DNA of 64,000 nucleotides from Candidatus Bathyarchaeota archaeon (GCA_963770935.1 CAVYRJ010000004.1:101745-165744); one strand, 5' to 3'. Counted from the stretch's first letter, positions 43,318 to 64,000 are shown. Program-made: numbers and translations. Notes: generated by a model not told the origin, from the sequence alone.

Positions 43318-43539
43318 ATGAAAAAAACAGATGGCATACGCGATGTCTTCAAAAACGTTAAGCACCGCAAACCAACCCAAATCTACTGCCCCAGATGTGC
43401 TAGCCCCAAAATCGCGCTGTCAGATAGCCTTGCAGTTTGGTTAACTCCTAAACAGTATTATTGTGAAGAATGCGGGTATCTCGGGATAATTGTTATGGAA
43501 CTCGAGAAGGAAGAGCCTGAAGAAGAAAATAAGAAATAG
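43318..43539 (+). CDS. Small zinc-ribbon protein, copy 2
   Basis: One amino-acid difference from copy 1. Confidence 0.8.
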   Translation: MKKTDGIRDVFKNVKHRKPTQIYCPRCASPKIALSDSLAVWLTPKQYYCEECGYLGIIVMELEKEEPEEENKK

Positions 43540-43552
43540 AAAGAAAGGGTGC

Positions 43553-44494: not shown

Positions 44495-44876
44495 TCTCTT
44501 CTACCTCAATTTTGATATGCGTAGAACCGTCACCATAGGCCATTTGGCTAGAAAATAGTACATTCGGCCCGCGCAAACTAAGCTGATGAACAGTTTTGAT
44601 ATTTAAGCTTTGTGGTTTATTAAACATATTGCACATAATGGTTTCGAATTGCACAACAAGCTGAAAGTTGCACTATGGAAAATGACATAAAAAAGTGTAA
44701 AAAAATGCTAAACCGCGCACAGAAAAACGTGCGCTTGCTTAATAAATATCAATTCTAAACATAAAGAAACATTAACCCTATTAATTTTAAAATACACGGT
44801 GAGAACGCTTATTAAGAAAAAAGCCACCCTTTAAACCTCTAACAATAAATAAAACAAGTGTTACTTGAAACCGTGC

Positions 44877-49634: not shown

Positions 49635-50931
49635 ATGTTAGTACAACAATTTGAATCCACCAAGAAAGAGACAGACACTACTTTTATCTATCCTCAATAT
49701 GACAAGAACTGCATCCTAAAAATACCAAACACCGTACTTCATTTGCTTGGCGCAGAAAATAATAAAACCGGTCCGCCCCTTGAAAACGCATTAAACTCGG
49801 TTTGTGGTGAAGGAATAAACAAAGTTGTTCTTCTAGTCATTGACGGATTCGGATTCAACCAGTTCCTAAATTATCATCAAGAAAACCAATTCTTAACCAG
49901 CCTCACCGACAAAGGCGAAGTGTATCCCTTAACAAGTGTCTTTCCGTCTCAAACAACAAATGCCTTAACAACTCTGAACACAGGTTTAACCCCGCAGGAA
50001 CATGGATTGTTTGAGTACTTCATCTACCTGAAAGATATTGGTTTGGTAAACTCGCTTAATTTTGAATGCATAGATTCCAAGCGTCCAAAATAAACTAAGA
50101 TACGAAGGATTTGACCTAAGTGCTCTTCTTTCAAAAGGTAAAACCATTCACAGCACATTAAAAGAACAGGGAATCAGCAGCTTCGCACATATCCAAGCTT
50201 CGAATGCCTCTAGCGCCTGTTCAAAACTAATTTTTCAGGGAAGCAAAATAGTACCCGCCGTTAAGCCATCTGATTCAATTGTTGGATTAAGAAAAAACCT
50301 GGAAGACAACAAAGGCAAGTGCGCATATTTTTTTGTGCATATAGATACTCTTGACACGATTTCCCATCAATATGGACCGGAAAGCTATGAGTATTATGCA
50401 GAATTATCATTGATTACTTATTTACTTAAAAGGGAATTAGTGGAGAAAATCGATCATAAAACTGCTAAAGAAACTCTTCTTCTAGTGACCGCTGATCATG
50501 GCGGTGTGAAGGTTGATCCAAAACAAACAACGTATCTTAATTGTTTCCCCAAAGCAATATTGAATTTGCAAGTTGGACGGAATCGAAAACCAATTTTGCC
50601 CATAGGTAGCCACAGGGAAGTTTTTCTACATATCAAGGATGAGAAGCTTGCTGAGACAAAGCAATATTTAACGCAAAAAATTGGTGACAAAGCCCAAATC
50701 ATTGAAACTAAAGAAGCAGCTAAAAAGGGTTTGTTTGGATTGGGTTTTGCAGGCAGTGAGTTTCTTGAAAGAACAGGCAACTTGTTGATTTTGCCCTATG
50801 GAAACCATACAGTGTGGTTTGAGGATTCGGATTGCAGAAAATCTAGTTTTCTGGGTCAACATGGAGGATTAAATGAGCAGGAAATGCTTGTTCCATTTGC
50901 AGTAGCTAATCTTTGCGGTTTAAAAGAATAG
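49635..50931 (+). CDS. Alkaline phosphatase/nucleotide pyrophosphatase-family protein; apparent frameshift(s) near 50090
   Basis: LVIDGFG, SVFPSQT, DTISHQYG, TADHG, GQHGG across two ORFs. Confidence 0.82.
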
Positions 50932-51047
50932 ATATCGATTCTGTAAATAAATTGCAGCCCGCTTTGCCTAAAATTTTTTGGATATATTGCGAATTAAGAA
51001 ATATTGCTTATAGATTCTGATATTTTACTTTTCTTTGGCGATGACCA

Positions 51048-51305
51048 ATGCTGAAACGTAGCCGAGTAACCATCACAATAGATATCTTAGAAGCGACCTT
51101 GACGCCTCAGAAAAAAATGAAGATAATGTACCAGGCAAATCTGAATTACGTCCGTTTTAACCGATATCTCTCTGACTTTCTGAGCAAAGGTTTCATCGAG
51201 GCCTTAAAGGATGCTGACGGTTATGGTTGCTACCGCATTACTTCAAGGGGCAAAGCTTTGCTGGTGTTGCTTAGGAAAGTAAATGACCTTGGATATTCCA
51301 TTTAG
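51048..51305 (+). CDS. Archaeal winged-helix regulator (HTH_45-like)
   Basis: KRSR..I..DIL, IMYQANLN, YRITSRG. Confidence 0.85.
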   Translation: MLKRSRVTITIDILEATLTPQKKMKIMYQANLNYVRFNRYLSDFLSKGFIEALKDADGYGCYRITSRGKALLVLLRKVNDLGYSI

Positions 51306-51841
51306 TAAAATTTTTTTGAGATTTTAGAAAATAGATTTTATTATTTGGTTTGTTTTGAAATGATGCAATTGTGCAAAATGCGGTTGTGTCATCATCACCA
51401 TCATCATCTTCTTGTAATGCCCTGCAGATGGTTTGCTCGTTTAATTTTAGTTTTTTCTGTTTTTGTTTTGAGTTGTGTTGGTTTAATTTTAGTAGTTTTT
51501 TTGATGTTTTTTGGGTAGTTTGTGTTTTTACTTTTTTCAATTTGTTTTGTTATTTTGATTTGTTTTTGATTTGAAATTTTAAAAATGATTCATTTCGATT
51601 TTGTAAATTGTTCTATAATTGTGGTGTTTTTGTGTGTACCTGAGGGCTCTACTTGTTGCCCTTCATACTTTATAACTTTAGACCGCTTTGTTCTTGAGTA
51701 CCTAAGAAAACGTTTCGAGAATTGTCCACTCCGGTCACGGCGGGATTAGCTAGTGGTAACACGTGCAAAACTGGCCAATGGATTTTAGGTCATTAATTTT
51801 GAAAAAGACTGCGTTTTCTCTTTTTAAACGTTGAAGGGGTC

Positions 51842-52201
51842 ATGTTGTCTTTGAAAGATAGAAAAACGGTCAACAAGAATCGCAGCAGTTTAGATATTGT
51901 GCGGGAAGTTCTTTCCATCGCTATAGTTAAAGTTTGCAAAACTAGAATCATGTATGGAGCCAATCTGAGTTTTCATCAACTCGAAAAGTACCTGCGAGCT
52001 CTTCTGGGAAACTCTCTTTTGTCATTCGACGGCGATTCTGGTTACTTGACTACTGCATCAGGAAAAGAGTTTCTTGCGCTCTATGAAGATTATCTAAAGC
52101 GATCTACTCATCTGGGCAAGGAAGTCGAAAGGAATATCAAAGACAAAGAGCACCTAGAAAACATGTGTGGATTTGGAAAAGACAAATCCAGTAACAACTA
52201 A
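51842..52201 (+). CDS. Archaeal winged-helix regulator (HTH_45-like)
   Basis: NRSSLDIV, KTRIMYGANLS, TASGKEFL. Confidence 0.85.
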   Translation: MLSLKDRKTVNKNRSSLDIVREVLSIAIVKVCKTRIMYGANLSFHQLEKYLRALLGNSLLSFDGDSGYLTTASGKEFLALYEDYLKRSTHLGKEVERNIKDKEHLENMCGFGKDKSSNN

Positions 52202-52248
52202 TTGTTAGTTACTTTTTACGTAAAATAATGAATTAGGTGTGTTAAGAA

Positions 52249-52479
52249 ATGAAAATCCCAAAAAGGGTTAAGGTTAGGTGTGAGTGTGGCGAGGAACTTT
52301 TGCTATTGCCCGATTTGAAGGAAATGGGTAGCGCCATAGAAGACCATGTGGATATGCATCTTCAAGGTTTGAAAGCTCCCAGTTGCACACCTGCAGAAGC
52401 TGAACGTCTAAAAAATATGTTAATTGCTCAGATCATAACTATCGCAAGCCAACCTGAAGACGAAGAAACCATTAGATAG
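52249..52479 (+). CDS. Small putative Zn-binding hypothetical protein
   Basis: CECG...HVDMH motif; GGTG ribosome-binding site upstream. Confidence 0.65.
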   Translation: MKIPKRVKVRCECGEELLLLPDLKEMGSAIEDHVDMHLQGLKAPSCTPAEAERLKNMLIAQIITIASQPEDEETIR

Positions 52480-52857
52480 AAACCAAGAGATCTTTTTTGG
52501 CCTCGATATAATACGATTTTTTGAATATGCAATTATATCCTTTTGTAATGTTGCTTGGTTAATTAGAAATGATTGAGGAGAAAAGGAGGCTATTTCAACG
52601 CTTTTTTCGAGGATTAGGGGGCTTTTTAAGGAAGTTGGTAAGAACTCTTTAATACAAGTTGCACTGAAAATAGCATTAGCGTTCTCGAGGAAGGCGAATT
52701 GTCTTAACGTTTAGCTTATCCGTTTTTCCTTGTTTCTGTCCGCTTCTGTCAGGAAGGGATTTCTTAGATTTGAGTCTAAAATTTTGTTTTGGTTTTTGGG
52801 GGCTTAGCCTCTTTTTTTGCATTAGTGATTTTTATTCGGGCGTTTTGTGTTAGCGGC

Positions 52858-52971
52858 TTATTGCCCTAGCCAATATATGATCCAGCCTGCTATGAAGACT
52901 GCCAGAAACAAGGGTAAGAGCGAAACTAATGCAAGCTTGCTGCGTTTTTTTCTACAGGTTGCATTTATCAT
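52858..52971 (-). CDS. Short single-TM protein, truncated paralog of 61664-61891
   Basis: RKKRSKL + TM + FIAGW..Y..GQ shared with the 75-aa ORF; stops right after GQ. Confidence 0.6.
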   Translation of the reverse strand: MINATCRKKRSKLALVSLLPLFLAVFIAGWIIYWLGQ

Positions 52972-53168
52972 TTCAGCACCTGTATTATGCTCTTGCGGAA
53001 CTCTTAATATATAAGGTTTTGTAATTGTCGGCGCACCAATCAACCACCAAAAAAATAGTTATGCAAATTTGTTAGCCAATTATTGGTTGTTGCGGAATTG
53101 TGGTAGCAAGTTGAGATTGCAAAGGTTGATATATCATCGAAGTTACTAAAAGAATTAATCTCGAAAAG

Positions 53169-53894
53169 TTGACGCAGATAAAAGAGTTTGAAAGCGTGGT
53201 TAAAAAAGAAAAGCAAAATGCCCCTTCGACGCAAGTTCTAATTGCAGCTATAAACGAGGAAGAAGGCATCGGCCACACCATATCCGAGTTAAACAAAACC
53301 CTTGGGAATCCAAAGATTTTGGTTGTTGACGGCAGAAGCAAAGATAAAACCGTTGAAGTGGCCAAGGAATTGGGCGCCCAAGTTGTTGTGCAGGATGGTT
53401 TAGGCAAAGGTGACGCGTTAGCTTCAGCAATCAAGGTTGCAGATTTTACAGCAGATTATGTTGTTATCACCGACGCAGATTACACCTATCCCGCAGAGTA
53501 TATTCCTGAGATGATTCGGGTTTTAGAGGAGAATCCTGACATTGGCATGGTTTGCGGCAACCGCTTCAGCGGCTACTTAAACTTGAAAGGGTTAAACGGC
53601 TTTTTTTATTTGGGAAATCGCGTTATAGCTTTTACTCACAACTTTCTAAACGGAGTCGCCTTAACTGACCCCTTGACAGGGTTGCGTTTAGTGCGTGCGA
53701 GCATTCTTAAAGACTGGAAGGTGAAGTCCAAAGGTTTTGATGTTGAGGTGGAGCTTAATCATCGTGTCGAGCGTGAAGGCTTTGGCATTGCGGAGGTTCC
53801 AATTCAGTATCGTGAACGGTTAGGCGAGAAGAAGCTTGGGTTTAGGCATAGTGTTGAAATTTTTAGGCGCATAATGTCAGAAGCAACGTACTAA
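53169..53894 (+). CDS. Family 2 glycosyltransferase (DPM1-like), copy 1
   Basis: NEEEGI, VVDGRSKDKT, GKG, DADYTY, GNR, GFDVEVE, EVPIQYRER. Confidence 0.9.
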   Translation: MTQIKEFESVVKKEKQNAPSTQVLIAAINEEEGIGHTISELNKTLGNPKILVVDGRSKDKTVEVAKELGAQVVVQDGLGKGDALASAIKVADFTADYVVITDADYTYPAEYIPEMIRVLEENPDIGMVCGNRFSGYLNLKGLNGFFYLGNRVIAFTHNFLNGVALTDPLTGLRLVRASILKDWKVKSKGFDVEVELNHRVEREGFGIAEVPIQYRERLGEKKLGFRHSVEIFRRIMSEATY

Positions 53895-54117
53895 CTTTTG
53901 CTTGCGTGATTTGGCATTTATCATTTCAGCACCTGTATTATGCTCTTGCGGAACTCTTAATATATAAGGTTTTGTAATTGTCGGCGCAACAATCAGCCAC
54001 CAAAAAAATAGGTAGCAATTTTTTAGCTAATTATTGGTTGTAGCGGAATTGTGGTTACAAGTTGAGATTGCAAAGGTTGATATATCATAAAAGTATCTAA
54101 AGAACTAATCTCGAAAG

Positions 54118-54844
54118 TTGAGCAGCTAAAAGAGTTTGAAAGCGTGGTTAAAAAAGAAAAGCAAAATGCCCCTTCGACGCAAGTTCTAATTGCAGCTATA
54201 AACGAGGAAGAAGGCATCGGCCACACCATATCCGAGTTAAACAAAACCTTTGAGGAATCCAAAGATTTTGGTTGTTGACGGCAGAAGCAAAGATAAAACC
54301 GTTGAAGTAGCCAAGGAATTGGGCGCCCAAGTTGTTGTACAGGATGGATTAGGCAAAGGTGACGCGTTAGCTTCAGCAATCAAGCGTTGCAGATTTTACA
54401 GCAGATTATGTTGTTATCACCGACGCAGATTACACATATCCCGCAGAGTATATTCCCGAAATGATTCGGGTTTTAGAGGAGAATCCTGACATTGGCATGG
54501 TTTGCGGCAACCGCTTCAGCGGCTACTTAAACTTGAAAGGGTTAAACGGCTTTTTTTATTTGGGAAATCGCGTTATAGCTTTTACTCACAACTTTCTAAA
54601 CGGAGTCGCCTTAACTGACCCCTTGACAGGGTTGCGTTTAGTGCGTGCGAGCATTCTTAAAGACTGGAAAGTGAAGTCCAAAGGTTTTGATGTTGAGGTG
54701 GAGCTTAATCATCGTGTCGAGCGTGAAGGCTTTGGCATTGCGGAGGTTCCAATTCAGTATCGTGAACGGTTAGGCGAGAAGAAGCTTGGGTTTAGGCATA
54801 GTGTTGAAATTTTTAGGCGCATAATGTCAGAAGCAACGTACTAG
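54118..54844 (+). pseudogene. GT2 copy 2 with two apparent frameshifts
   Basis: Near-identical to copy 1 but split into ORFs 54250-54489 and 54461-54844. Confidence 0.75.
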
Positions 54845-54932
54845 CTTTTGCTTATGTGATTTGTGGGTAGGCGGTTGTTAATCTTGGTAAAGTTCATATT
54901 TCCCACGGTGGGAATTTCTTTGGTGGGAAAAA

Positions 54933-55166
54933 ATGGCCGCTGAAGAAGTAACTGTTGACAAGAAAGGGCGTGTACAAATTCCCAAAGCAATCCGAGATAA
55001 AGTCGGATTACGCGTTGGCGGAAAAGCTCGCCTAAAAATAGAAAAAGAAAATATAATTATCATGCCCCCAATTTCACCTGAAGAATTCATTAGAGAAATG
55101 GAAGGCTGCATCAAGGAAGGCGCCCCCGACCTTGATCCGCTGAAGCTTAAGAAAATGTGGGAATAG
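54933..55166 (+). CDS. AbrB/MazE/SpoVT-type antitoxin (orphan)
   Basis: VDKKGRVQIPKAIR..GL..G; only a 3' scrap of a PIN gene follows. Confidence 0.85.
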   Translation: MAAEEVTVDKKGRVQIPKAIRDKVGLRVGGKARLKIEKENIIIMPPISPEEFIREMEGCIKEGAPDLDPLKLKKMWE

Positions 55167-55360
55167 GGTGTGCTTGAGCAAAAAGTCTTTACTTTGCGAA
55201 ATATAATCTCTTATTTTGACAAGATCAAGCAGTTAATACGTCAAACACTTACTTGAAATTTACACAATAAAAGAAATAGATGCCAGGTTAACTTGGTTTG
55301 ATAAGTTGATTTAGAATAACTTATTATCTTAAGTGTCCTTATCGGTACTGGTGAGTTGCT

Positions 55361-55570
55361 ATGGCTGAAACAGTTTCAATTCCTCGTCCGCTATTAAAAG
55401 AGCTCTACGAACATTTTGACCGAATAGAAGAGATTCTAGCTACGCTCGAAGAGCTTTCAGATAAAAAAGGGCTAAAGAGAATTAAAAGAAGTCTTGAAGA
55501 ATACAAGAATAAAGAATGCGTTACGCTCTCAAGTTCTGATAAAATCAGAGAAGCCCTCCTGAAGGACTAG
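55361..55570 (+). CDS. Putative antitoxin
   Basis: 69-aa acidic helical ORF (ATLEELSD) directly upstream of a RelE-like fragment. Confidence 0.7.
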   Translation: MAETVSIPRPLLKELYEHFDRIEEILATLEELSDKKGLKRIKRSLEEYKNKECVTLSSSDKIREALLKD

Positions 55571-55572
55571 GT

Positions 55573-55707
55573 TTGCAATACAAGTCGATTTTCACTAAGA
55601 GTTTCAAAAAGGAATTTTGCAAACTTCCAAAAGGCATCCGAGAAATTATTCTTAAGAGTTTGGAAAAAACAATAGTGAATCTAAGACTTAAGGGCGATTG
55701 GCATTGA
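55573..55707 (+). pseudogene. Truncated RelE/ParE-like toxin
   Basis: Own translation MQYKSIFTKSFKKEFCKLPKGIREIILKSLEKTIVNLRLKGDWH*: RelE N-terminus without the C-terminal strands. Confidence 0.65.
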
Positions 55708-55798
55708 CTGTTTCTGGTTTGGCGCCGGTTCAAGTTGTCTCTATGGTTAGATGCAATAATCATTAAATAGGAAACAAGCCAATAGAGTTTGAGAAGAC

Positions 55799-55993
55799 AT
55801 GACAATTGAAGTTGAGCTAAAGGAAATAAAAAGTCTGCTCTCAGAGTTAAAACAGAAAATGGATGTTCTGCTTGAAGAAAAAGAAACTTCAACAATGATG
55901 GGCCTATCCGACAAATCGCTTAAGGACTTCTTTGCAAAAGAACCTGACATTTACACAATTAAAGATATAAAAGCCAAGGTTAACTGCGTTTGA
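55799..55993 (+). CDS. Putative antitoxin of the MazF/PemK pair
   Basis: 64 aa, overlaps the toxin start (TTGA). Confidence 0.75.
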   Translation: MTIEVELKEIKSLLSELKQKMDVLLEEKETSTMMGLSDKSLKDFFAKEPDIYTIKDIKAKVNCV

Positions 55994-56316
55994 AGGGAAA
56001 AATAGTCCTTATACCTTTTCCGTTCACAGACCTAACAGCAACCAAACTAAGGCCTGCACTTGTTCTTTATGAAGGAGAAAAAGATGTCGTAGTAGCCTTC
56101 ATTTCCTCCAGAACGGACAAACCAAAACCCGTCGACATCGCCATCAACGAAAAAAACGCAGAATTCAAACAAACAGGACTCAAACTAACCTCAACCATAA
56201 AACTCGACAAGGTCGCAACAATATCAAAAGATCTCATTATAGGCGAAATCGGTGAAATAGGACCTAAACTCAAAAAAGAAGTAAACCGCAAAATCACGGA
56301 AATCTACAATTTGTAA
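55990..56316 (+). CDS. MazF/PemK-family toxin
   Basis: GKIVLIPFPFTD..KLRPALV, TGL..S.IKLDK. Confidence 0.9.
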   Translation: MKGKIVLIPFPFTDLTATKLRPALVLYEGEKDVVVAFISSRTDKPKPVDIAINEKNAEFKQTGLKLTSTIKLDKVATISKDLIIGEIGEIGPKLKKEVNRKITEIYNL

Positions 56317-56451
56317 GGTACGCTTTTTCTTTTGAGACAAAGCCTTCAAATCGTTTTAAGATTAGATTTCCTTTTTTCTGGATGCTTGGAAAGTTTAAAG
56401 ATTTCCGGATTGTATTTGTTGCATAAGAATTAAGGGCGATTTGCATTAACT

Positions 56452-56652
56452 GTGACAGTTAACAACGCTGAAGTAAAGTTGGTTCTTGAAAAATTAGGCA
56501 GTGTCCAACTTGAACTTTTGAGGCTTAGAGCATTGCTTCTACCTGAAGAAGAGTTATCTGGGGAAGAAAAAGAGAGACTTGATGTAGCTCGAAAAGAAAC
56601 TGCAAAAGGCCAAAAAATAAGCCTTGATGTCTTACTTAAAGAACGGTGTTGA
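56452..56652 (+). CDS. Orphan antitoxin, paralog of 60225-60431
   Basis: Protein and about 75 bp of upstream DNA match 60150-60431; no RelE follows. Confidence 0.75.
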   Translation: MTVNNAEVKLVLEKLGSVQLELLRLRALLLPEEELSGEEKERLDVARKETAKGQKISLDVLLKERC

Positions 56653-56956
56653 CTTAATTCCTTCAAGGGTTAAGCGGATTAATTTCCTCGTGGATTCGGC
56701 TCAAGCGAAGTTGCTTTAAGAGTATCTCTCATGCAAAACCTGGGTTAGTTAACTATGACCGAAGGAAATAGCGATAGAAGAGAGGGAAATTCGCAAGGAA
56801 TTTTGCGATGGTATAAGAGTTTTTATCAAGACAACGACTACGCAAAAAACCTTGACCAAACAGTTATCAGAATGCGTGAGCTGGAACTTTGCTGATGGCT
56901 TGTTTGGGGCTTGGGTTTTGAAGGTTTAAATTTTATGTTTAATAATTGTTTATGTT

Positions 56957-57226
56957 GTGTTTGATGTGTCTTTATCCAGTGTTGTCGATGAGTTTCCTTT
57001 GTTTAGGGAAAGGGAGTCGAAAGAGCGTTTTTTGTTGGTTTTGGGTCTTCTTGCTTCTCGAACTGTTACTTTAGGTAAGGCCGCTGAGGTTTTAGGTATG
57101 TCTCATGTAGAGTTTTCGGCGGTGCTTAGGAGTATAGGTTTTAAGTTTAGTTATTTGGATGATGAAGAGTTGACCAAAGAAGTGGTTGCAGGCAAAGATT
57201 TGTTGAAGAAGAAGCGGTGTAGTTGA
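56957..57226 (+). CDS. UPF0175-family antitoxin-like HTH protein (orphan)
   Basis: VTLGKAAEVLGMS..EF...L motif. Confidence 0.8.
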   Translation: MFDVSLSSVVDEFPLFRERESKERFLLVLGLLASRTVTLGKAAEVLGMSHVEFSAVLRSIGFKFSYLDDEELTKEVVAGKDLLKKKRCS

Positions 57227-57415
57227 AGGCTGCGTTGGGGAAATTCGTTGGGAATAGCACTTCCGAAAGCACTAGTTGACCAAGAAGGGCTCAAAGAAGG
57301 CGAAGAAGTAGAGGTAACTGTGAGAAAAACATCTGATATAAGTTGCCTAAGAGGCAAATATCTGTTCAAAAACTTGCAGCATGAGAAAGACGAAATGAAA
57401 CACGGTTGGCAATGA
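57227..57415 (+). pseudogene. 5'-truncated AbrB/MazE antitoxin
   Basis: Own translation RLRWGNSLGIALPKALVDQEGLKEGEEVEVTVRK...GWQ*; WGNS motif, no start codon. Confidence 0.7.
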
Positions 57416-57495
57416 TTTGATCGTTGAAGCTTTGTCTTGGTTTTATCACTATTTTTATATCTGCCTATTCATCTTAACATGTTGGCGAATAATTT

Positions 57496-57720
57496 ATGCG
57501 TGATTTCGATGTAGTTCTTTTGGAAGATGAAACTGGAGGTTACGTGGCTATAGTGCCTGCTTTGCCTGGATGTCATACGCAGGGTGACACGTTGGCTAGT
57601 GTTTTGGAAAACGCTAAAGAAGCCATAGATCTTTATTTGGAAACCTTGACTGCTTCGGAAAAGAAAGATTTGTTGAAGGGAAAAGTTGTGGGCATACAAA
57701 AAGTGAAAGTTCTTGCCTAA
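57496..57720 (+). CDS. hicB: HicB-family antitoxin
   Basis: GGYVAIVPALPGCHTQGDT...NAKEAI. Confidence 0.92.
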   Translation: MRDFDVVLLEDETGGYVAIVPALPGCHTQGDTLASVLENAKEAIDLYLETLTASEKKDLLKGKVVGIQKVKVLA

Positions 57721-57946
57721 AATTCCGCCTGTTGATTCTAATCAATTAATTAAAATATTGAGTCATAAAGGTTTTAATGTTATCCGTCAAAAAGGTTCAC
57801 ATGTTATTCTGATAGATAACGCGAAAAGTCGAATAGTTATACCTATACATCCAGGAAAAGACCTCAAGCCAGGATTAGTTAGGGCAATACTTAGAGAAGC
57901 TGGAATAAGTCGAGAAGAATTCCTCAAGCTATTGAAAGAAAAATAG
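57713..57946 (+). CDS. hicA: HicA-family toxin
   Basis: GF...RQKGSH, IPIHPGKDL.PG...IL..AG. Confidence 0.92.
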   Translation: MPKIPPVDSNQLIKILSHKGFNVIRQKGSHVILIDNAKSRIVIPIHPGKDLKPGLVRAILREAGISREEFLKLLKEK

Positions 57947-58356
57947 ACTATAAAGTTATTTTAGAAACATTTGTACTTACTGTGGTTTTCATAAAAAGTT
58001 TGCTCGAGGGTACTTATTGATGAAGCTTGGATTACAAACTTGTCTTTGTGGCAGCTGCTTTAATTGGCTGATTAACTATTGCTTCTCCAGCCTCCGCTGG
58101 TGCCATTTATAGATAACATCCTACAAATAAGCGATGTAACCTTAAGGCAGAAAAACCTGCATGTGAAGACGCGTAATCTCAGAAGCTACGTATTAAGCAA
58201 GGTTTAGTTTATTTGTGTTTGTTCTTCTTGAGAAATTATGATGGTTTTAAGTGGGAGTCTTATGGGTGGCTCTGAGTTTGGTTTTTGTCGTTTTTTGGCT
58301 TTTTTGGCAATAAACTTATATTTGTTATTTATGTGATGGTTTGTCGGTGGTTTGGG

Positions 58357-58608
58357 TTGTCTGTTGAGGTTGGCAAGTATGGCCGCATCGTTTTACCTAA
58401 GCGGTTGCGTCAAAAATATAGTATGCATGAAGGCATCAGACTAATTATTACAGAGTATATGGGGCGAATCTGTCTAATCCCTGTTGAAACCTACAAAAAA
58501 CCTGCCGAAGCATTATACGGCTCCATAAGCCCCCGCTCCCCTATCGATGAGCCAAAACAGTTAGCAAGAGAATACATACGGAAAAAACTCGTTGAGGACT
58601 ATCAGTGA
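58357..58608 (+). CDS. AbrB-type VapB antitoxin
   Basis: VGKYGRIVLPKRLR; TTG start 58357; GTGA overlap with the toxin. Confidence 0.82.
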   Translation: MSVEVGKYGRIVLPKRLRQKYSMHEGIRLIITEYMGRICLIPVETYKKPAEALYGSISPRSPIDEPKQLAREYIRKKLVEDYQ

Positions 58609-59006
58609 AGCGCTTCGTAGATACGAATGTGTTCATCTACACCATTATTGCGCATCCGCGTTTTGGGAAAATAGCAAAGCAAATTCTTGAGCGTATTGAA
58701 GAAGGCGAAGATGCCCTAACTTCCACAGTAGTGTTGTGCGAAGTAGCTTGGGTGCTGGAAGCTATGGGCAGGCAAGGAGACATTAGGTCTACACTTGAAA
58801 AGATAATGTCTTTTCGAACTCTTGAGGTTGTGGATTTCAATGAGGATGATTTACTCATAGGCGCCAACAACATGTCTACGGAGCAAGTTGACTTCAATGA
58901 CGGAGTCAACCTTGCTTTGATTATGCGCCTTGGTATATCAGAAGTATACTCAAACGACCAGAAACACCTAGGCAAACTTGACTTCTTGAAATTGATATTC
59001 GAGTAA
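58605..59006 (+). CDS. PIN-domain VapC toxin
   Basis: FVDTNVF, E, DFND, YSND acidic residues. Confidence 0.9.
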   Translation: MKRFVDTNVFIYTIIAHPRFGKIAKQILERIEEGEDALTSTVVLCEVAWVLEAMGRQGDIRSTLEKIMSFRTLEVVDFNEDDLLIGANNMSTEQVDFNDGVNLALIMRLGISEVYSNDQKHLGKLDFLKLIFE

Positions 59007-59353
59007 TTGTGGCATAGATACAGATTAATATCCTTAAAATAAACAAAATAACTTTAAAGGCAGAAAAATCCGTATGAAGACGCATAATGTCTGAAGCAAC
59101 GTACTGACTTTTGCTTGCGTGATTTGTGGGTAGGTGGTTGTTGACCTTGGTAAAGCGTATATTTCCCTTGGTTGAAGAAAAAGTCAAGCAAGTTGAGCTT
59201 ATGAAAACAATAAAGCAGATGGAGTCAAGAGCCGAAAAAAGAATCACAACGGCCGACTCAAATCTTCTAGTAAGAGAGGATCGAGAACGATAAAAGTAAT
59301 ACTTGACTCTAACATATTAGTACTTTTATTAGGTACTACTTTATGATATTACT

Positions 59354-59596
59354 GTGGTTTTAAAGTTGGAAAGTGAAGTTGTAGTAACAAGGAAGGGGCA
59401 AACGACAATTCCAGTTAAACTTCGGCTAAAATACAAGATTGAAGAAGGAACAAAACTTCAAGTCGTAGATACAAATAACGGCATTCTTTTCAAACCGAAA
59501 TTATCAACAATGGATCTTGCAGGTTCAGGCGCCAAATACGCGTCAGTCGAGGAAATGAAAAAGCTCCTTGACAAGTTAAGGGATGAAGATGTCTAA
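59354..59596 (+). CDS. AbrB-type VapB antitoxin
   Basis: VTRKGQTTIP..LR.KY.I.EG. Confidence 0.88.
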   Translation: MVLKLESEVVVTRKGQTTIPVKLRLKYKIEEGTKLQVVDTNNGILFKPKLSTMDLAGSGAKYASVEEMKKLLDKLRDEDV

Positions 59597-59975
59597 AGCA
59601 GTTTATGACACTAGATTTTTTGTGGAAAATTATTACTCGCCAGACCCAATAATTATAGAAAAACTAAAAGAATCTTTGAGAAAAACCAAAGAACGATATA
59701 TTTCTGCTATAGTGATTCATGAAGTGTATCAGCTAACTCTAAGAAAAGAAGGCCGAGAAACTGCAATACTCCGTACAACACTTCTAGAGCAAGATTTTCG
59801 AGTTGTAAATGTTGATGCTGATATAGCAAAATTATCGGCTGAAATTAGACTAAACCATAAAATGTCGATGGCAGACAGCATAATAGCGGCCACAGCGATA
59901 TCGCTAAAAGCAATATGTATCTCGGATGACTTACATTTTAAGGCTGTTAGTGAAATTAAAACTCAATGGATTTAG
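59589..59975 (+). CDS. PIN-domain VapC toxin
   Basis: VYDT, HEV, MADSIIAATA, SDD.HF. Confidence 0.9.
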   Translation: MSKAVYDTRFFVENYYSPDPIIIEKLKESLRKTKERYISAIVIHEVYQLTLRKEGRETAILRTTLLEQDFRVVNVDADIAKLSAEIRLNHKMSMADSIIAATAISLKAICISDDLHFKAVSEIKTQWI

Positions 59976-60224
59976 CCAAAACTAGAAAATTTATAGATTT
60001 CTGGATTGTTGGTGCTATTCACAGATCAACATCCTAAAAATAAAACCATGTAACCTTAAAGGCAAAATCCCGCATGTGGGAGACGCGTAATGTCAGAAGC
60101 TACGGTCTAAGCAAGGTTTAGTTCGCAAGTTTGATAGGTTAATTTGCCAATTTTTTGGATGTTTGGAGAAACTTTAAAGATTTCAATATTGTATTTGTTG
60201 TATAAGAATTAAGGGTGATTTGCA

Positions 60225-60431
60225 TTGACTGTGACAGTTGACAACGCTGAAGTGAAGTTGGTTCTTGAAAAACTAGACAGTGTCCAGCTTGAACTTTTGA
60301 GGCTTAGAGCATTACTTCTACCTGAAGAAGAGGTATCGGAAGAAGAAAAAAAGAAACTTGATTTTGCTCGAAAAGAAATTGCAGAAGGCCAAAAAATAAG
60401 CCTTGACGCCTTACTTAAAGAACTGTGTTGA
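60225..60431 (+). CDS. Antitoxin of the RelE pair
   Basis: 68-aa acidic ORF 7 bp upstream of RelE. Confidence 0.8.
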   Translation: MTVTVDNAEVKLVLEKLDSVQLELLRLRALLLPEEEVSEEEKKKLDFARKEIAEGQKISLDALLKELC

Positions 60432-60438
60432 TTAGGGC

Positions 60439-60702
60439 TTGTTTGAGATTTTTCTATCGCAGAAAGCGAGAAAAGCCATAAAAAAGCTCCCTGAGCATTA
60501 TAGACGAAAAGTCATCGAGCTTCTCCTGATTTTGCGTGAAAATCCTGTTCCAGCGGAATACTACGATATAAAGAAACTTAAAGGCTGCACCGACACATAC
60601 AGAGCAAGAATCGGGGATATACGAGTAGTTTATGAAATCGTCTGGAATCAACGAATTGTCAATGTGCTGTTAATTGAACCAAGAGAAACAGCCTACTCTT
60701 GA
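60439..60702 (+). CDS. RelE/ParE-family toxin
   Basis: A.K.IKKLP, KKLKG, YRARIGDIRVVY. Confidence 0.92.
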   Translation: MFEIFLSQKARKAIKKLPEHYRRKVIELLLILRENPVPAEYYDIKKLKGCTDTYRARIGDIRVVYEIVWNQRIVNVLLIEPRETAYS

Positions 60703-60986
60703 AATCTAATGAAAACTTGCTTATTGCTTCTCCAGCCTTTGCTGAAGCTATTCACAGATAAACATCCTACAAATAACGGATGTAACCTTAAGGCAGAAAA
60801 ATCTGCTGTGGAGACGTGTAATGTCAGAAGCTGCGGTCTAAGCAGAGGTTTAGTTTGCTAGTATTTGTTGTTCTTGGGGAATCATGGTGAATTCGACTTT
60901 ATCTTGTTTTTTTGGTGTTGTCTTTTGCGTTATCGATCATTTAGTATAAATATGGGTTATACTTAGGTATAACTTGGGGTAAGACT

Positions 60987-61232
60987 TTGATTGACCAGGA
61001 AATGAAAGTTGGTCCAAAAGGCCAAGTAGTCATACCGCGAACGATGCGAAAAGCGCTCAAAATAGAACCAGGATCCAAAGTATTATTCACACTACAAGAC
61101 GACAAATTAACCCTGCAAAAACCCTGTTTTGATGGGGTAGCTGCTTTCAAAAAAATAGCCGAGCAAATAAAGTCAAATGAGAAAATAAATCCTCACGAAT
61201 ACGAAGAAGAACTTGAACAGAGAAATCCCTAA
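60987..61232 (+). CDS. AbrB-type VapB antitoxin
   Basis: VGPKGQVVIP..RKAL.I.PG; TAATG overlap with the toxin. Confidence 0.88.
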   Translation: MIDQEMKVGPKGQVVIPRTMRKALKIEPGSKVLFTLQDDKLTLQKPCFDGVAAFKKIAEQIKSNEKINPHEYEEELEQRNP

Positions 61233-61627
61233 TGCTTTACCTTGACGCAAACGTTTTCATCTACGCAGCCATAAACACCCAAGAAATTGGCGAAAAAGCA
61301 AGGACTTTGCTCTTAAAAATCCAGCAAGGAGACCAAAAAGCAGCTACCTCAGCATTAACGTTTGACGAAGTATTTTGGTCAATAAAGAAACGTAAACCAG
61401 AACTCGCCTCAGAAACATCTTACGCCCTCTTAAACTTCCCCAATCTTGAAATCATACCCGCTGACAGAAAATTGGCCTTGTCGGCTTTAAAATTAATCAA
61501 TGAATACAATTTAGCGCCAAGAGACGCCCTCCATGCCGCTACAGCGATAGCTTCAAAAGCAGATTTTGTAGTCTCAACGGACGCTCATTTTGACAAGATC
61601 AAAGAGTTAACACGTCAGTCAATCTAA
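61232..61627 (+). CDS. PIN-domain VapC toxin
   Basis: YLDANVF, DEV, PRDALHAATA, STD.HFD. Confidence 0.92.
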   Translation: MLYLDANVFIYAAINTQEIGEKARTLLLKIQQGDQKAATSALTFDEVFWSIKKRKPELASETSYALLNFPNLEIIPADRKLALSALKLINEYNLAPRDALHAATAIASKADFVVSTDAHFDKIKELTRQSI

Positions 61628-61663
61628 AACGCATAATGTCTGAAGCTACGGTCTAGGCAAAGT

Positions 61664-61891
61664 TTAGTTCGCAAGTATTTGTTGTTCTTGAGGAATCATG
61701 CCCAATTCGACTCCGTCATGTTGCTGTGTTGGTGTTTTGTTGGTTGGTTTTTGGGGTTGTTTTGTGTTTTGATGCCATGCTTGTCCTATACAGTAAAGGC
61801 TCCAGCCGGCTATGAAGATTAATGGCAATATAGGTGCTAAAAGGAGAACTGTGAGTTTGCTGCGTTTTTTTCTACTGGTTGATTTTGTCAA
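61664..61891 (-). CDS. Small single-TM hypothetical protein whose 3' end forms the repeat right arm
   Basis: RKKRSKL + TM + Q/K/P/T tail ending IPQEQQILAN*. Confidence 0.7.
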   Translation of the reverse strand: MTKSTSRKKRSKLTVLLLAPILPLIFIAGWSLYCIGQAWHQNTKQPQKPTNKTPTQQHDGVELGMIPQEQQILAN

Positions 61892-62313
61892 ATCAATGCC
61901 TGCTCCAATCTTGCAACTTAATTTTTAACATATAACCTTTATGAATTGTCAATACACATAATGCAATCGTCGAACACCTGAACAGAAAAACAAATGACGA
62001 ACACCGCTCTAATTTTTAAGCGCATAATGTCAGAGGCAAACATTCTTAGAGTAAGTTTTTGATAATAAATTATCTATAGAAACTTGAGCTTTTGGTTTAG
62101 ATATATTACGGTTTTTTGAATACACATTATAAGCTTTGTTAAGACTTGCAAGTTGAGAATAAAAGAAGAAGAGACAGAGGTTTCAAGTTGACTTTGCCAC
62201 AGGGAAAAAACCAGGTTGTCTTGCTTCTTATTTTTAATTGTTGTGTTTGGTCTAAACTGTTTCACGATTCTACTTGCTTAAAAAAAGGAATAACTCTTGT
62301 AAGGTGTTGAAAC

Positions 62314-62958
62314 TTGGTTTTGAAATCTAGTAAAATTCTCGCCATTGGGGCACACCCTGATGATATTGAACTAGGTTGTGGTGGTACTGTTAGCGCTGCT
62401 TGTGCGGCAGGTGCAAATGTTGTCGCGGTCTTTTTAACCAAAGGCGAGCAAAGTGGAAACCCTGACTCTAGACGCCAAGAAAGCGTGGATGCTTTGAATC
62501 TTCTTGGGGTAACGAACATATATTTTGGGGATTTTTCAGATGCTGATATTCCGAATTCTCGCCAAGTAATCGATTTTCTAGAATCTTTCTGCAAGAACGG
62601 AGAAATCGAAACAGTCTTAACGCACACAATAAACGATTCACATCAAGACCACCGACAAGTAGGCTGGCTTTCATTGTCCGCGTTTAGAAATGTTCCGCGA
62701 ATATTAGCATATGAAACCCCAAGGGTAACACCAAACTTCTCGCCAACCTACTTTGTTGACATATCTAACTTCGTAGAAGGAAAATGGGCAGCATTAAAAT
62801 GCCACCTGTCGCAAAAAACAAAAAGATATCTTGCTTACGAGTCGATGATTAATTTGGCCTCATTTAGAGGTAGCCAAGTTAATGTTCGTGCAGCTGAAGC
62901 CTTTGAAGTGATACGATATTTGGAAAAAAACCAAATCGTTCCACATGTGATTAAATAA
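62314..62958 (+). CDS. PIG-L/LmbE-family deacetylase
   Basis: AHPDDIELGCGG, HQDH, H.SQ, AEAF. Confidence 0.92.
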   Translation: MVLKSSKILAIGAHPDDIELGCGGTVSAACAAGANVVAVFLTKGEQSGNPDSRRQESVDALNLLGVTNIYFGDFSDADIPNSRQVIDFLESFCKNGEIETVLTHTINDSHQDHRQVGWLSLSAFRNVPRILAYETPRVTPNFSPTYFVDISNFVEGKWAALKCHLSQKTKRYLAYESMINLASFRGSQVNVRAAEAFEVIRYLEKNQIVPHVIK

Positions 62959-62959
62959 T

Positions 62960-63633
62960 ATGATTGTGGCTGGGCATCAACCTAATTATTTGCCTTGGTT
63001 AGGTTTTTTTGACAAAATTCGTCGTTGTGACCTCTTTATTATTGAAGATAATGTTCAGTATGAGCAGCAGGGTTTTACGAATAGGAACAGGATAAAGACG
63101 CCTGATGGTGCTAAATGGTTGACGGTGCCTATTGAGCATGTTGGGGGTCGTATGTTGATTAATGAGGTAAAGATTTCTAAGAAAGCTGAACCTGATTGGG
63201 CTAAACGCCATTGGCATAGCTTAAAGCACCATTATAGTAGAGCTCCGTTTTGGAAAGCGTATTGTGGTTTTTTCGAGCAAACTTACGCCAAAGAATGGAC
63301 CATGCTCTTTGATCTTAATTTATATTTGATAAGAGGCATTATGCGTATTTTTAACATCGAGACGCCTCTTATATGGCATCTTCTTTGGGTGTTTTTGAGG
63401 GAAAAAGCGAAGCAGTTCTTGCTAAAAGCAAAAAAGTTGGAGCTGATACGCTTCTCTGTGGGAGGGGAGCGAAGGAATGTATTGATCTGAAGAGGTTTGA
63501 AGATGAAGGAATCAAAGTGGTCTTTCAAGATTTTCACTATCCAAAGTACCCGCAGCTTTACGGCGGGTTCGTAGATGAACTTTCGGTTGTCGACTATTTA
63601 TTTTGTAATGGAAATCAATTTACCGTAAACTAA
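62960..63633 (+). CDS. WbqC-family protein; apparent frameshift near 63370
   Basis: HQPNYLPWLGFF, NRNRIK, WLTVP; tail YPQLYGGF...LSVVD in the next frame. Confidence 0.85.
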
Positions 63634-63657
63634 TTCCTGACCTTGGAGGTTTTCTTT

Positions 63658-64000
63658 ATGGAAAAAACTAGACGAGTGTTCTCTGCGTCTCCATTCTTCG
63701 ATGAGCGAAGCGTCGAATTAATCTTGAGTGAAATCGGCCAAACCCTGAAAAGTGGGGTTCTGACTGATGGTCCACGCGTTCAGGAATTTGAGCGGCAATT
63801 CGCAGATTATGTTCACACCAAGCATGCAATTGCTGTGAGTTCAGGAACAGCTGCGCTGGAAATAATGCTTAGGTTTTTTAATATCGAGAATAGAGAAGTC
63901 ATTGTTCCAACAAACACTTTCGTTGCTACACCCACCTCTGTTTTGTTCTCAGGGGGCAAACCGGTTTTTGGAGATATGAAGGCGGAGACTCTCTGCGTTG
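63658..64000 (+). CDS. DegT/DnrJ/EryC1/StrS sugar aminotransferase (partial)
   Basis: Own translation ...GPRVQEFE...AVSSGTAAL...VIVPTNTFVAT...GGKPVF. Confidence 0.9.
   Translation, partial: MEKTRRVFSASPFFDERSVELILSEIGQTLKSGVLTDGPRVQEFERQFADYVHTKHAIAVSSGTAALEIMLRFFNIENREVIVPTNTFVATPTSVLFSGGKPVFGDMKAETLCV

Follow-up and report, generated by a model that had tools for sequence, protein, structure and literature searches.

Organisation of the locus

The window considered here is the whole 64,000-nucleotide stretch analysed, part of a metagenome-type assembly of 1,984,278 bases in 18 contigs (91% complete). An intact GT2 glycosyltransferase gene lies at 53169..53894 on the + strand (ORF and translation; Pfam PF00535, E 2.8e-18), and the segment 52961-53913 is followed by its tandem duplicate at 53914..54863 (+, 96.6% identical), within which a frameshifted GT2 copy (54122-54844, +) ends in the 21-bp core discussed below (54818-54838). 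The surroundings are rich in plain tandem duplications, with a GT2 unit of 950 bp and a TFB/aSUI1 unit of 1965 bp, and one GT2 unit is skipped in a metagenome contig, where 53138 is joined to 54103.

Downstream, the + strand carries a series of small genes that would be classed as type II toxin-antitoxin (TA) modules, in that an antitoxin stands next to a toxin of known family with scores above or near the Pfam cut-offs. Pfam searches of 20 ORFs agree with the four toxin families named in the earlier note, giving three PIN toxins (58605-59006, 59583-59975 and 61232-61627), one ParE/RelE toxin (60439-60702), one PemK/MazF toxin (55990-56316) and one HicA toxin (57713-57946), all on the + strand with the antitoxin first, as also described there. 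Antitoxins of the AbrB/MazE, HicB and UPF0175 types are confirmed by Pfam.

That each interval between cores holds exactly one complete TA pair is true of the four intervals between 58170 and 61650 but not of 54839-58169, a core-free stretch with about seven TA modules, some of them remnants; the statement is therefore limited to those four. The interval 54839-58169, read on the + strand, begins with the upstream region of the next gene (the A arm, 54839-54932), an AbrB/MazE-type antitoxin (54933-55166; PF04014) and a 34-nt remnant of a VapC 3' end (55210-55243; 88% identical to 61584-61617), and this block, 54839..55243, recurs in a relative (G111, 88%) and in the metagenome locus L085. There follow, at 55361..55734, a 69-aa antitoxin, a truncated RelE-like ORF (55573-55707) and the 3' end remnant of p175, a 175-aa gene (55708-55734; LFLVWRRFK by tblastn), the whole being 94% identical in nucleotides to locus L113 of G120, where the toxin part is longer. 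A MazE-like gene with the MazF/PemK toxin (55799..56316; PF02452, E 3.5e-14) is succeeded by an orphan RelB-like antitoxin with its upstream region and another p175 3' remnant (56374..56822, the remnant at 56679-56822), and then by a UPF0175 antitoxin, an AbrB fragment and HicB-HicA (56957..57946; Pfam), the HicBA block being 83-85% identical in nucleotides to G109 and G026. The orphan RelB-like antitoxin and its upstream region are 89% identical to 60151-60431, and a third, 30-nt remnant of the RelB-like gene is also present.

The four later intervals hold, again on the + strand, VapB-VapC pair 2 (58345..59006; Pfam PIN), VapB-VapC pair 3 (59354..59975; Pfam), a RelB-like antitoxin and ParE/RelE toxin with their upstream region (60151..60702; PF05016) and the VapB-VapC pair 4 cassette (60935..61628; PIN, E 1.8e-21). 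Even here, the interval 59102-60083 has its TA pair but also a remnant of another module, made up of a small ORF and the first codons of a PIN gene (59173-59350, +). The homology of the pair 2 cassette with relatives spans 58274/58281 to 59013, at 84-89% nucleotide identity to G026 and G023, where an intact copy of the DUF1616 gene p199 lies some 150-240 nt downstream; the pair 4 cassette is 89.5% identical over 695 nt to G111 and there likewise stands upstream of an intact p199.

The core and its origin

The core occurs eight times, always on the + strand, at 53868, 54818, 58170, 59081, 60084, 60815, 61630 and 62021, in a search that allowed up to three mismatches (0.01 matches expected; eight reached in none of 100 shuffles), and the spacings first given, 911, 1003, 731 and 815 bp, are correct. 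In positional order the copies carry 0, 0, 1, 0, 0, 2, 0 and 3 mismatches. Searched genome-wide, as had been proposed, a degenerate form of the core gives seven forward and no reverse matches, all at this locus, and its backwards control gives none in the whole assembly.

What recurs as the core is the GT2 3' end, and the idea of a dedicated recombination site is not supported. It comprises the last seven GT2 codons, after which come one further codon and the stop, and the copy at 53868-53888 is contained in the GT2 C-terminal RRIMSEATY plus stop (ORF and translation). Compared with GT2 RRIMSEAT, five of the eight codon changes in the seven copies with 0-2 mismatches are silent third-position changes and the other three are conservative (I>V twice, T>A). 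The in-frame stop is kept in seven of the eight copies; the eighth, at 62021, has three mismatches and has lost the stop. In other words, the repeat is its target gene's 3' end with frame and stop preserved, as is expected of an att-type site. Moreover, the GT2-derived piece begins about 24-27 nt before the stop, within a few bases, behind three different left neighbours, namely the p199 remnant of the mosaic described below, the stop codon of VapC4 (61627) and, in G111, a PIN remnant, with a fourth copy beginning at about -34 (62011).

Across a set of 30 GT2 genes, the last 12 codons have a synonymous identity of 0.71 against 0.53, ranking second among 200 windows with a p of 0.002 that is overstated by related sequences. 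A 12-mer shared with a core copy is found at two of the 3074 ORF ends of the genome, about what the two GT2 copies contribute. The 12-mer TGTCTGAAGCAA of the core also occurs in G111 at the 3' end of p175, the gene end that borders the other insertion site.

The mosaic between the pairs

The repeat length of 21 bp applies to the core, but in four intergenic copies the repeat is a 125-280-nt mosaic, R, composed of p199 pieces (N-terminus and middle), the GT2 3' end and that of a convergent small membrane-protein gene. Copy 1 (58020..58296, +; tblastn E 2e-7 and alignments) has p199 aa 5-30 at 58030-58107 and the middle piece at 58114-58160 (both +), the GT2 3' end with core 58170-58190 (+) and the membrane-protein gene 3' remnant at 58207-58296 (- strand). 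Copy 2, within 59014..59350 (+), has the p199 middle piece (59021-59071), the core (59081-59101) and an A arm (59102-59167); copy 3 (60006..60130, +) has the p199 joint and middle piece, the core (60084-60104) and a short membrane-protein-gene arm; and copy 4 (60715..60930, +; tblastn) has p199 aa 19-30 and 137-157, the core (60815-60835) and the membrane-protein gene 3' remnant (60853-60930, - strand). After pair 4, the core 61630-61650 (+) begins 2 nt past the VapC stop, within 61630..61891, and an intact 75-aa small membrane-protein gene (61664-61891, - strand) converges on it; its ortholog in G115, 72% identical, is likewise faced by a GT2 3' remnant. The last GT2 3' remnant, including core 62021, lies at 62011..62041 (+). 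A 48-nt direct repeat, 60083-60130 against 61629-61676 (92% identical), brackets the two distal cassettes.

The deletion joints are identical in all four R, running from p199 aa ~30 to aa ~137 and from aa 157 to the GT2 end. The four are therefore copies of a single decayed piece of a surface-glycosylation cluster, with the DUF1616 gene first, then GT2 and then the convergent small membrane-protein gene. The copies are 77-83% alike, as against 92-99% for recent duplications, and their arm lengths vary, as illegitimate joints would give. Chromosomal arms flank their core on both sides, a feature not expected inside a simple att array, and the core within R (88% kept) is hardly better preserved than a p199-derived stretch (85%). 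A profile of the upstream arm matches only the four R places in the genome (E 1e-23 to 1e-16; next best 0.8), and the whole R is found in none of the 119 other genomes of the genus.

Related genomes and metagenome contigs

Among the 30 best p199 loci, p175 abuts p199 in 26 and TA modules lie upstream of p199 in four. The occupied pads hold HicBA (G109), VapBC2 (G023), HicBA with VapBC2 (G026) and a RelBE-like module with one further ORF (G120), and two further loci are occupied in G111 (AbrB and VapBC4) and G106 (NTase and HEPN). On nucleotide comparison, the TA modules of the window are evidently those of the relatives' landing pad between p175 and p199. Every TA module observed in the pad points the same way as p199, with about 11 in the genome of the window (G000) and nine more in six relatives. 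Four of the insertions are flanked by duplications of the flank, of 48 nt (87.5%, G109), ~90 nt (G111), ~140 nt (G120) and 213 nt (83%, G106); none of these four contains an identical core block, the mismatches being spread along them. In other genomes no core borders VapBC4, VapBC2 or HicBA, and an orphan copy of the GT2 3' end is present at one of 42 GT2 ends (31 relative loci). G102 has an 8.7-kb segment with a 77-nt direct repeat (86%) of the GT2 3' end on either side.

The earlier note had held that an unchanging gene order, with no variation bounded at the core, would speak against accretion; contigs from other metagenomes do break at the core, short ones showing forms without two cassettes or with another arm. 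In a contig of run X1, VapC4 and the core are followed by an A-type arm, an exchange exactly at the core. In contigs of X2 and X5 (two studies), the 1,569-1,575 nt between cores 60084 and 61630 are absent, and the core is diverged (19-27 other letters and a 2-nt deletion), being neither one of the two G000 cores nor a hybrid between them. Independent contigs also span 57969-58119 (downstream of HicA into R1, one difference), 58250-58400 (R1 into VapB2, no differences), 58640-59145 (VapC2 through R2 into the A arm) and 61274-61650 (VapC4 and core). Beyond short metagenome contigs, no donor allele carrying R turned up.

Integron and Xer/dif features

The statement that the site is neither a canonical attC nor a full dif is upheld by fold z-scores near those of shuffles, the lack of an Rfam family and the lack of an 11-spacer-11 dyad. 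For integrons the criterion was an IntI-type tyrosine recombinase with attI beside the array, and for attC imperfect palindromes folding single-stranded (R''-L''...L'-R'); attC sites are described as structure-specific in this sense (PMC9668308). Folding six copies, 141 nt each, as the bottom strand revealed no attC-like fold (z -1.19 to +1.49, 200 shuffles), and stems in one copy were absent from the others; a scan of 50000-64000 showed no attC-type family in Rfam, which may not hold an attC model. Tyrosine recombinases had been proposed for listing and assay, of which the listing gives five PF00589 matches in the genome and none on this contig (C4). Past the array the contig runs for another 2 kb. 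By Pfam, the units consist of TA genes alone, without a recombinase. An integron/attC array is not supported, given the missing fold and the missing PF00589 match on C4; that two or more sites lie within less than 4 kb of one another and separate short co-oriented ORFs is a likeness of pattern only. With dif taken as a 28-bp site of two ~11-bp inverted arms and a 6-8-bp spacer, the best dyads at the eight copies reach 6-8 of 11 and are equalled by 36 to 279 of 300 shuffles; a Xer/dif or pdif site is likewise not supported, with no 11-spacer-11 dyad at any of the eight.

Proposed growth of the array

The locus looks like a spot where recombination makes TA pairs pile up, rather than a new integron-like capture system. 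The explanation we favour, to which we give about an even chance, is that a TA islet has expanded by additive recombination, with duplication of its flank, and that addiction retains the resident modules. DNA from a relative with another TA allele at the same pad would recombine through the homologous downstream flank R, while the other end joined illegitimately, or else a circularised fragment would enter by single crossover; each event would therefore add a TA + R unit and leave the resident module in place. Losing an addictive pair already present would be counter-selected, and the non-addictive glycosylation genes between pairs would erode. The core would then recur because it is part of the duplicated flank, rather than as a dedicated capture site. 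Of the cassette-accretion locus first proposed, the co-oriented small TA units with a recurring sequence are supported, but the dedicated, undescribed site is not: the core is a gene end, R is a pseudogene mosaic with chromosomal sequence on both sides, flank duplications in relatives vary from 48 to 213 nt, the same cassettes occur without an edge core, only one of 42 relative GT2 ends has an orphan copy, and the contig has no tyrosine recombinase.

Additive growth is favoured by the identity of the core with GT2 codons and its mostly silent differences, the shared joints and paired chromosomal arms of R, the absence of whole R from the other genomes of the genus, the variable arm lengths, the flank duplications and landing pad of relatives, the upstream-arm profile that matches only here, the tandem duplications nearby, the lack of an attC-like fold or dyad, and the precedent of bacterial TA islets as described in PMC13617665. 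Against it stand the constant start of the GT2 piece, the X1 swap at the core, the raised synonymous identity of GT2 ends, the uniform TA orientation, unpredicted by random illegitimate entry, and the G102 segment between GT2-end repeats; moreover, we infer the recombination steps, and donor alleles with R did not turn up beyond the short metagenome contigs.

A possible, though rather unlikely, account is that site-specific recombination of the att type acts on the final ~27-30 nt of GT2. Small TA cassettes that lack an integrase and are mobilised in trans would integrate and accrete in tandem at the GT2 3' end, each bringing a replacement gene end, as do elements at tRNA genes and protein-gene 3' ends; this is the first cassette model with its site redefined as a gene-end att site. 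Such replacement ends would be expected to raise synonymous identity, and the account agrees with the frame and stop kept in seven of eight copies, the coincident left edge, the single orientation, the X1 arm swap, the X2 and X5 forms without the two distal cassettes, the 48-nt repeat that brackets them, the G102 insert and the p175 12-mer in G111. Thaumarchaeal elements found in protein-gene 3' parts, with arrays formed by site re-use, lend it a precedent (PMC6563490). It is opposed by the same chromosomal mosaic on both sides of the internal repeats, the array of TA genes only with no tyrosine recombinase on the contig, the lack of dyad symmetry in or around the core, the core's ordinary conservation within R, the diverged, non-hybrid core of the 'empty' X2/X5 forms, the cassettes without edge cores, the rarity of orphan copies and the variable duplications at the p175/p199 site.

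Generalised, the att-type account would mean that these archaea have a trans-acting, directional cassette-capture system whose site is a short gene-end sequence around TGTCWGAAGCAA, which is doubtful. Its sites would be GT2 gene 3' ends and also the p175 3' end in G111, with shorter matches in two remnant copies, and it would insert integrase-less TA cassettes, sometimes larger cargo (G102), rebuilding the target gene end. If so, the array in the window would be its most expanded product, and the genus-wide rise in GT2 3'-end synonymous identity the footprint of repeated end replacement.

It is improbable that no outside DNA was involved and that a long multi-TA + R unit was duplicated in tandem, with different deletions in each copy. 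The 0.95 and 1.97 kb duplications in the same window, the twofold RelB-like gene and upstream region with its further remnant, the variable arms and the other-module remnants inside units (59173-59350, 55210-55243) would fit, but R copies are less alike than recent duplications, an old array would be expected in relatives, where the whole R is absent, and close counterparts of the modules (83-94% in nucleotides) are spread over different species. An assembly artefact stringing together several strains' alleles is very improbable indeed: the assembly is of metagenome type, no run contains >13% of sampled words and the second GT2 copy is frameshifted, but R copies differ by ~20%, which rules out repeated passage through a single collapsed repeat, and independent contigs from other studies span four stretches of the array.

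Comparison with known systems

In Xer/dif and pdif systems, short recurring sites set off small modules, frequently TA pairs; the recombinase is encoded elsewhere, and pdif sites alternate in orientation. The array shares with Xer/dif and pdif the placing of small TA modules between short recurring sites, but its copies are all direct and without a dyad.

Cis-mobilisable elements of streptococci integrate at protein-gene 3' ends and accrete in tandem. In the thaumarchaeal survey, 14 of 68 integrated elements lie in 3'-distal parts of protein genes and arrays form by site re-use (PMC6563490). Common to such 3'-end integrative elements, as that survey describes archaeal iMGEs, and to the present locus are gene-end direct repeats that restore frame and stop, arrays from repeated use of a site, and an integrase that can be missing. 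Unlike those elements, the units of the window are under 1 kb and hold a TA pair only, with no integrase found, chromosomal sequence flanks the internal repeats on both sides and the extent of duplication varies.

Integron cassette arrays without integrase (CALINs), including the archaeal ones of PMC9668308, resemble the array in that units of less than a kilobase, often TA pairs, follow one another in a single orientation with no integrase in view, and in a recurring separator more alike inside the array than elsewhere; they differ in that attC folds, whereas here the separator is a mosaic of pseudogene pieces from neighbouring genes.

Bacterial TA systems, in the account of PMC13617665, cluster in small spots with repeated acquisition at one place and erosion, forming islets without mobility genes for which entry by homologous recombination at flanking genes has been proposed. 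The window has in common with these chromosomal islets the clustering, the repeated acquisition, the pseudogenised toxins and the lack of mobility genes. It differs from the islets described there in belonging to an archaeon, in being an ordered array punctuated by copies of an eroded flank, and in that flank duplications accompany the insertions in four occupied relatives.

The repeated core and its source

Eight copies of the 21-bp core, allowing up to three mismatches, were counted in the window (at 53868, 54818, 58170, 59081, 60084, 60815, 61630 and 62021, all on the + strand) against an expected 0.01, and none of 100 shuffles reached eight. A degenerate form of the core, searched against the whole assembly (1.98 Mb in 18 contigs, 91% complete, with the window as the final 64 kb of contig C4), gave seven matches, all of them at this locus, and none on the reverse strand or with a backwards control. 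The source of the core is coding sequence. A GT2 glycosyltransferase gene at 53169-53894, matched to PF00535 at E 2.8e-18, has the copy at 53868 as its 3′-terminal codons (RRIMSEAT, then Y and the stop), just as the frameshifted tandem duplicate of this gene has the copy at 54818; the two duplication units, 52961-53913 and 53914-54863, are 96.6% identical. The remaining six copies still encode the GT2-end peptide with changes I>V, T>A or R>K, the in-frame stop is retained in seven of the eight, and the W positions of the degenerate core are third codon positions. In other words, what the earlier note had read as a recombination-site-like repeat, punctuating an integron-like array of toxin–antitoxin (TA) cassettes, is a remnant of the GT2 gene end.

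Its view that the site is neither attC-like nor dif-like does stand. Single-strand folds of six copies have z values from −1.19 to +1.49, no better than shuffles, and the best 11-spacer-11 dyads pair 6-8 of 11 positions, a result equalled by shuffles in 36-279 of 300 trials. No Rfam family matched in 50000-64000, where sub-threshold hits (E up to 1; mir-310 and, twice, Termite-leu) were taken as chance. Tyrosine-recombinase matches number five in the genome and none on contig C4.

The GT2 family is multi-copy in the genus, with matches at E ≤1e-40 in 83 of 101 genomes, as many as 11 in a single genome and some of them in tandem. At one locus of a relative (L012, G012:C10) a unit of about 5 kb stands twice in tandem (5007-8311 and 10014-13313), holding a VapBC pair, a winged-helix regulator, a small Zn-ribbon-like protein, a small membrane protein and a GT2 gene; there is also an extra partial GT2 copy, and several of the GT2 copies contain stops. 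Another (L047, G106:C17, 8622-12787) has three GT2 paralogs in tandem, one every 1.7 kb, the first of which is immediately followed by a RelE-like pair. In the window itself, a 49-nt direct repeat (52495-52543 and 62090-62137, 80%) lies just beyond the two ends of the GT2-plus-TA region of about 9.5 kb, and may stem from an older duplication or mark the edges of a larger insert. Elsewhere in the window, a tandem duplication of about 1,965 bp (40961-42878 and 42927-44842, 92-99% identical) carries genes for an aSUI1-like translation factor, altered at the 3′ end of its second copy, and for TFB. From these two genes, identified by eye, the organism is called archaeal. A search for mcrA gave no match, its control query matching in two methanogens; in the amoA search the control matched nowhere.

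Composition of the longer repeat

The likeness among the copies at 58170, 59081, 60084 and 60815 extends well beyond 21 bp, taking in some 100 nt on the upstream side and 30-110 nt on the downstream side (identity 77-83%), and this longer unit is here termed R. Its make-up was identified by tblastn with relatives' proteins. Upstream lie pieces of p199, a 199-aa membrane protein assigned to DUF1616 by Pfam, namely its N-terminus (aa 5-30, at 58030-58107, E 2e-7) and aa 137-157 (at 59021-59071 and 60752-60811); the GT2 end comes after them, and the opposite strand carries the final 26-30 codons of the gene for a small membrane protein of 75 aa, which is present intact at 61664-61891. Two joints are common to all four copies: p199 aa ~30 is joined to aa ~137, and aa 157 to the GT2 end. 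The four are therefore copies of one deletion derivative and did not decay separately.

Searched against the genome, a profile of the upstream arm matches these four places only (the next match has E 0.8), and the whole of R was found in none of 119 other genomes of the genus. Within R, mean pairwise identity is 88% in the core window and 85% in the p199-derived window; the core is thus only marginally better kept, which does not speak for a site under constraint within R. A reading of the ~100-nt upstream arm as a decayed VapC 3′ end, for which a four-arm nucleotide profile missed the vapC ends, was dropped because tblastn showed pieces of the DUF1616 gene.

Toxin–antitoxin modules and their landing pad

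The toxins named in the earlier note are confirmed by Pfam (three PIN, ParE/RelE, PemK/MazF and HicA), as are antitoxins of the AbrB/MazE, HicB and UPF0175 types, and all TA genes lie on the + strand with the antitoxin first. The rule of a single pair to each interval is correct for four intervals, those of 58170-61650, but fails for 54839-58169, where 3.3 kb contain some seven modules or remnants and no core. Remnants of the 3′ end of p175, a 175-aa gene, stand at 55708-55734 and 56679-56822, and neither p175 nor p199 has an intact close copy in G000, the genome of the window.

Relatives have p175 followed by p199, often adjoining GT2, with the small membrane-protein gene converging on a GT2 end; GT2 3′ remnants of about 135 nt (G115) and 200 nt (G111) face this small gene. 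p175 abuts p199 in 26 of the best 30 p199 loci from 120 genomes, and the other four have TA modules upstream of p199. The occupants of this landing pad are HicBA in G109, VapBC2 in G023 (89-91% aa identity to the window pair at 58345-59006), HicBA with VapBC2 in G026 and, in G120, a RelBE-like module with 94% nucleotide identity to 55296-55681, after which come a p199 N-terminal remnant, a 117-aa ORF read as a fused second TA pair, and intact p199. Additional to these four are occupied loci in G111, with an AbrB gene and VapBC4 (89.5% identical over 695 nt to 60935-61628), and in G106, with a nucleotidyltransferase/HEPN pair. Four of the insertions are accompanied by flank duplications that reach from the 3′ end of p175 into the 5′ end of p199 (G109, 48 nt, 87.5%; G111, ~90 nt; G120, ~140 nt; G106, 213 nt, 83%), in which mismatches are scattered throughout with no identical core block in any of the four genomes. 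Overall, the pad is occupied by about eight TA families across seven genomes, all oriented as p199, with flank duplications or remnants beside the modules in five.

The limits of cassette homology are sharp (58274/58281-59013, 60935-61628 and 57441/57474-57949), and the edges of the same cassettes in those other genomes are without the core. HicBA and VapBC2 are separated by a 147-nt spacer in G026 and by R in G000. The HicBA insert of G109 and the nucleotidyltransferase/HEPN insert of G106 start with the same AT-rich sequence of about 45 nt after the left flank repeat, to which 56936-56963, ahead of the UPF0175 gene of the window, bears a weaker likeness; this start may be a shared promoter or the trace of one ancestral insertion.

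Proposed growth of the array

The anatomy, the source of each piece of the repeat, the landing pad, its flank duplications and the structural variants are all observed. As to mechanism, the best reading, held with middling confidence, is that the array has grown by additive recombination. Incoming DNA with another TA allele of the pad would recombine through the homologous downstream flank, while its other end would join illegitimately inside the 3′ part of the small membrane-protein gene; alternatively, a circularised fragment might enter by a single crossover. The product would be the resident TA pair, R and a short remnant, then the new pair, R and an intact small gene, and the observed order matches it, the intact small membrane-protein gene standing at the distal end only. 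Since replacement of an addictive resident pair would be selected against, additions would survive, and non-addictive genes between the pairs would erode. Homology-facilitated illegitimate recombination forms part of the background here, as do streptococcal cis-mobilisable elements for integrative elements at gene ends.

A second explanation, possible if rather unlikely, is that the GT2 end serves as an att-type site on which a recombinase acts in trans. Several features still point to something particular about this gene end, and the att-type reading would account for them. One is the coinciding start of the GT2-derived piece, which lies some 24-27 nt ahead of the stop whether the left neighbour is the p199 remnant (in R), the stop of VapC4 or, in G111, a PIN remnant; the piece at 62011 starts at about −34. 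The reading would also account for an arm swap at the core in metagenome run X1, where a contig has VapC4 and the core followed by an A-type arm (as at 54839-54932) and G000 has the other arm, and for the co-orientation of all modules. The raised synonymous identity of the final 12 GT2 codons (window 53856-53891) falls under it as well: among 30 intact genes it is 0.71 against 0.53 elsewhere, ranking 2 of 200 windows, with a Mann–Whitney p of 0.002 that is overstated, the sequences being related; candidate causes are gene conversion, inserts that replace the gene end, and an overlapping signal. Likewise, the 12-mer TGTCTGAAGCAA is common to the core and the p175 3′ end of G111 (L050, G111:C5), and p175 remnant copies in G109 (L100, G109:C54) and G026 (L121, G026:C63) have 10-mers in common with the core, the intact p175 end of G109 a 6-mer only. 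The peptides at the shared 12-mer (or 10 nt of it) are LSEAKPE at the p175 end and MSEAT in the core, and both gene ends border TA insertion points; in this genome only 2 of 3074 ORF ends share a 12-mer with a core copy, which is about the contribution of the two GT2 copies, and the likeness was noted post hoc.

The att-type site would further account for the orphan GT2-end repeat of G102. There (L105, G102:C1) a 77-nt direct repeat of the GT2 end (10699-10775 and 19436-19511, 86%) brackets 8.7 kb of unrelated genes, among them one for a Pro/Thr/Ser-rich protein of 547 aa and two large ORFs, of 491 and 417 aa, that by eye are FAD-dependent oxidoreductase-like. No recombinase-like ORF was seen in the segment, which may have inserted at this gene end long ago. 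The att-type reading matches the behaviour of integrated elements in archaea: among 68 of them, 14 use the 3′-distal portions of protein genes, and such elements can build up arrays (PMC6563490). What an att-type site leaves unexplained, however, is the shared two-sided mosaic of R, the missing dyad and recombinase, the variable flank duplications and the rarity of orphan cores, that of G102 being the only one among 42 GT2 ends at 31 loci of relatives.

Variants in other samples

Twenty-two public sequencing runs, with no RNA run among them, contain part of the stretch, each with at most 13% of sampled words; short contigs of four runs were aligned, and parts without contig cover are not evidence of absence. 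A 460-nt contig of run X2 passes from 60010-60086 through 27 other letters to 61662-62000, and a 171-nt contig of run X5 from 59983-60083 through 19 letters to 61653 onward. From these joints, X2 and X5 are without the RelBE and VapBC4 units, the breaks falling at cores 60084 and 61630. The joint letters are a diverged core with a 2-nt deletion and not a hybrid of the two G000 cores. Other joints lie away from cores (55161 to 56840, 61617 to 55707, and one GT2 duplication unit skipped). A history of duplication followed by differential deletion is improbable. Contigs of other samples independently confirm the array at 57969-58119, 58250-58400, 58640-59145 and 61274-61650, and an assembly artefact is very improbable indeed.

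A scan of metagenome contigs with the degenerate core gave 17 loci, none of them a second array; 16 are without similarity to the locus and were taken as chance, and the other (L085) carries GT2, the core, the A arm and the start of an AbrB gene.

Significance and comparison with known systems

The movement of chromosomal TA pairs in the absence of recognisable mobile elements is a long-standing question, for which the genus offers a compact and comparable case, G000 having expanded the process at the pad into an ordered array. Pad occupancy, flank remnants and the ordered array together make two mechanisms directly testable on defined junctions, namely additive recombination (homologous or illegitimate) with addiction as the filter, and an att site at a gene end. 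Were the former true, addiction could convert allele exchange into accumulation, and eroded flanks could produce integron-like repeat patterns, which is a warning in itself; were the latter true, the locus would be a new kind of archaeal cassette platform.

Islets and hot spots of TA genes are already known, as are TA cassettes carried by integrons. New are an archaeal TA array punctuated by eroded-flank copies and a TA pad common to about a fifth of the p199 loci examined, with flank duplications; a keyword search of the literature found no description of such an array, which does not prove that none exists. Archaeal integrons have attC sites that fold, together with IntI (PMC9668308), whereas the core in the window folds no better than shuffles, and the locus does not qualify as an archaeal integron in that sense. 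The additive reading agrees with the picture of bacterial chromosomes in PMC13617665, in which TA genes form small spots that acquire modules repeatedly in one place and erode, and homologous recombination at the flanks is the proposed route of entry.
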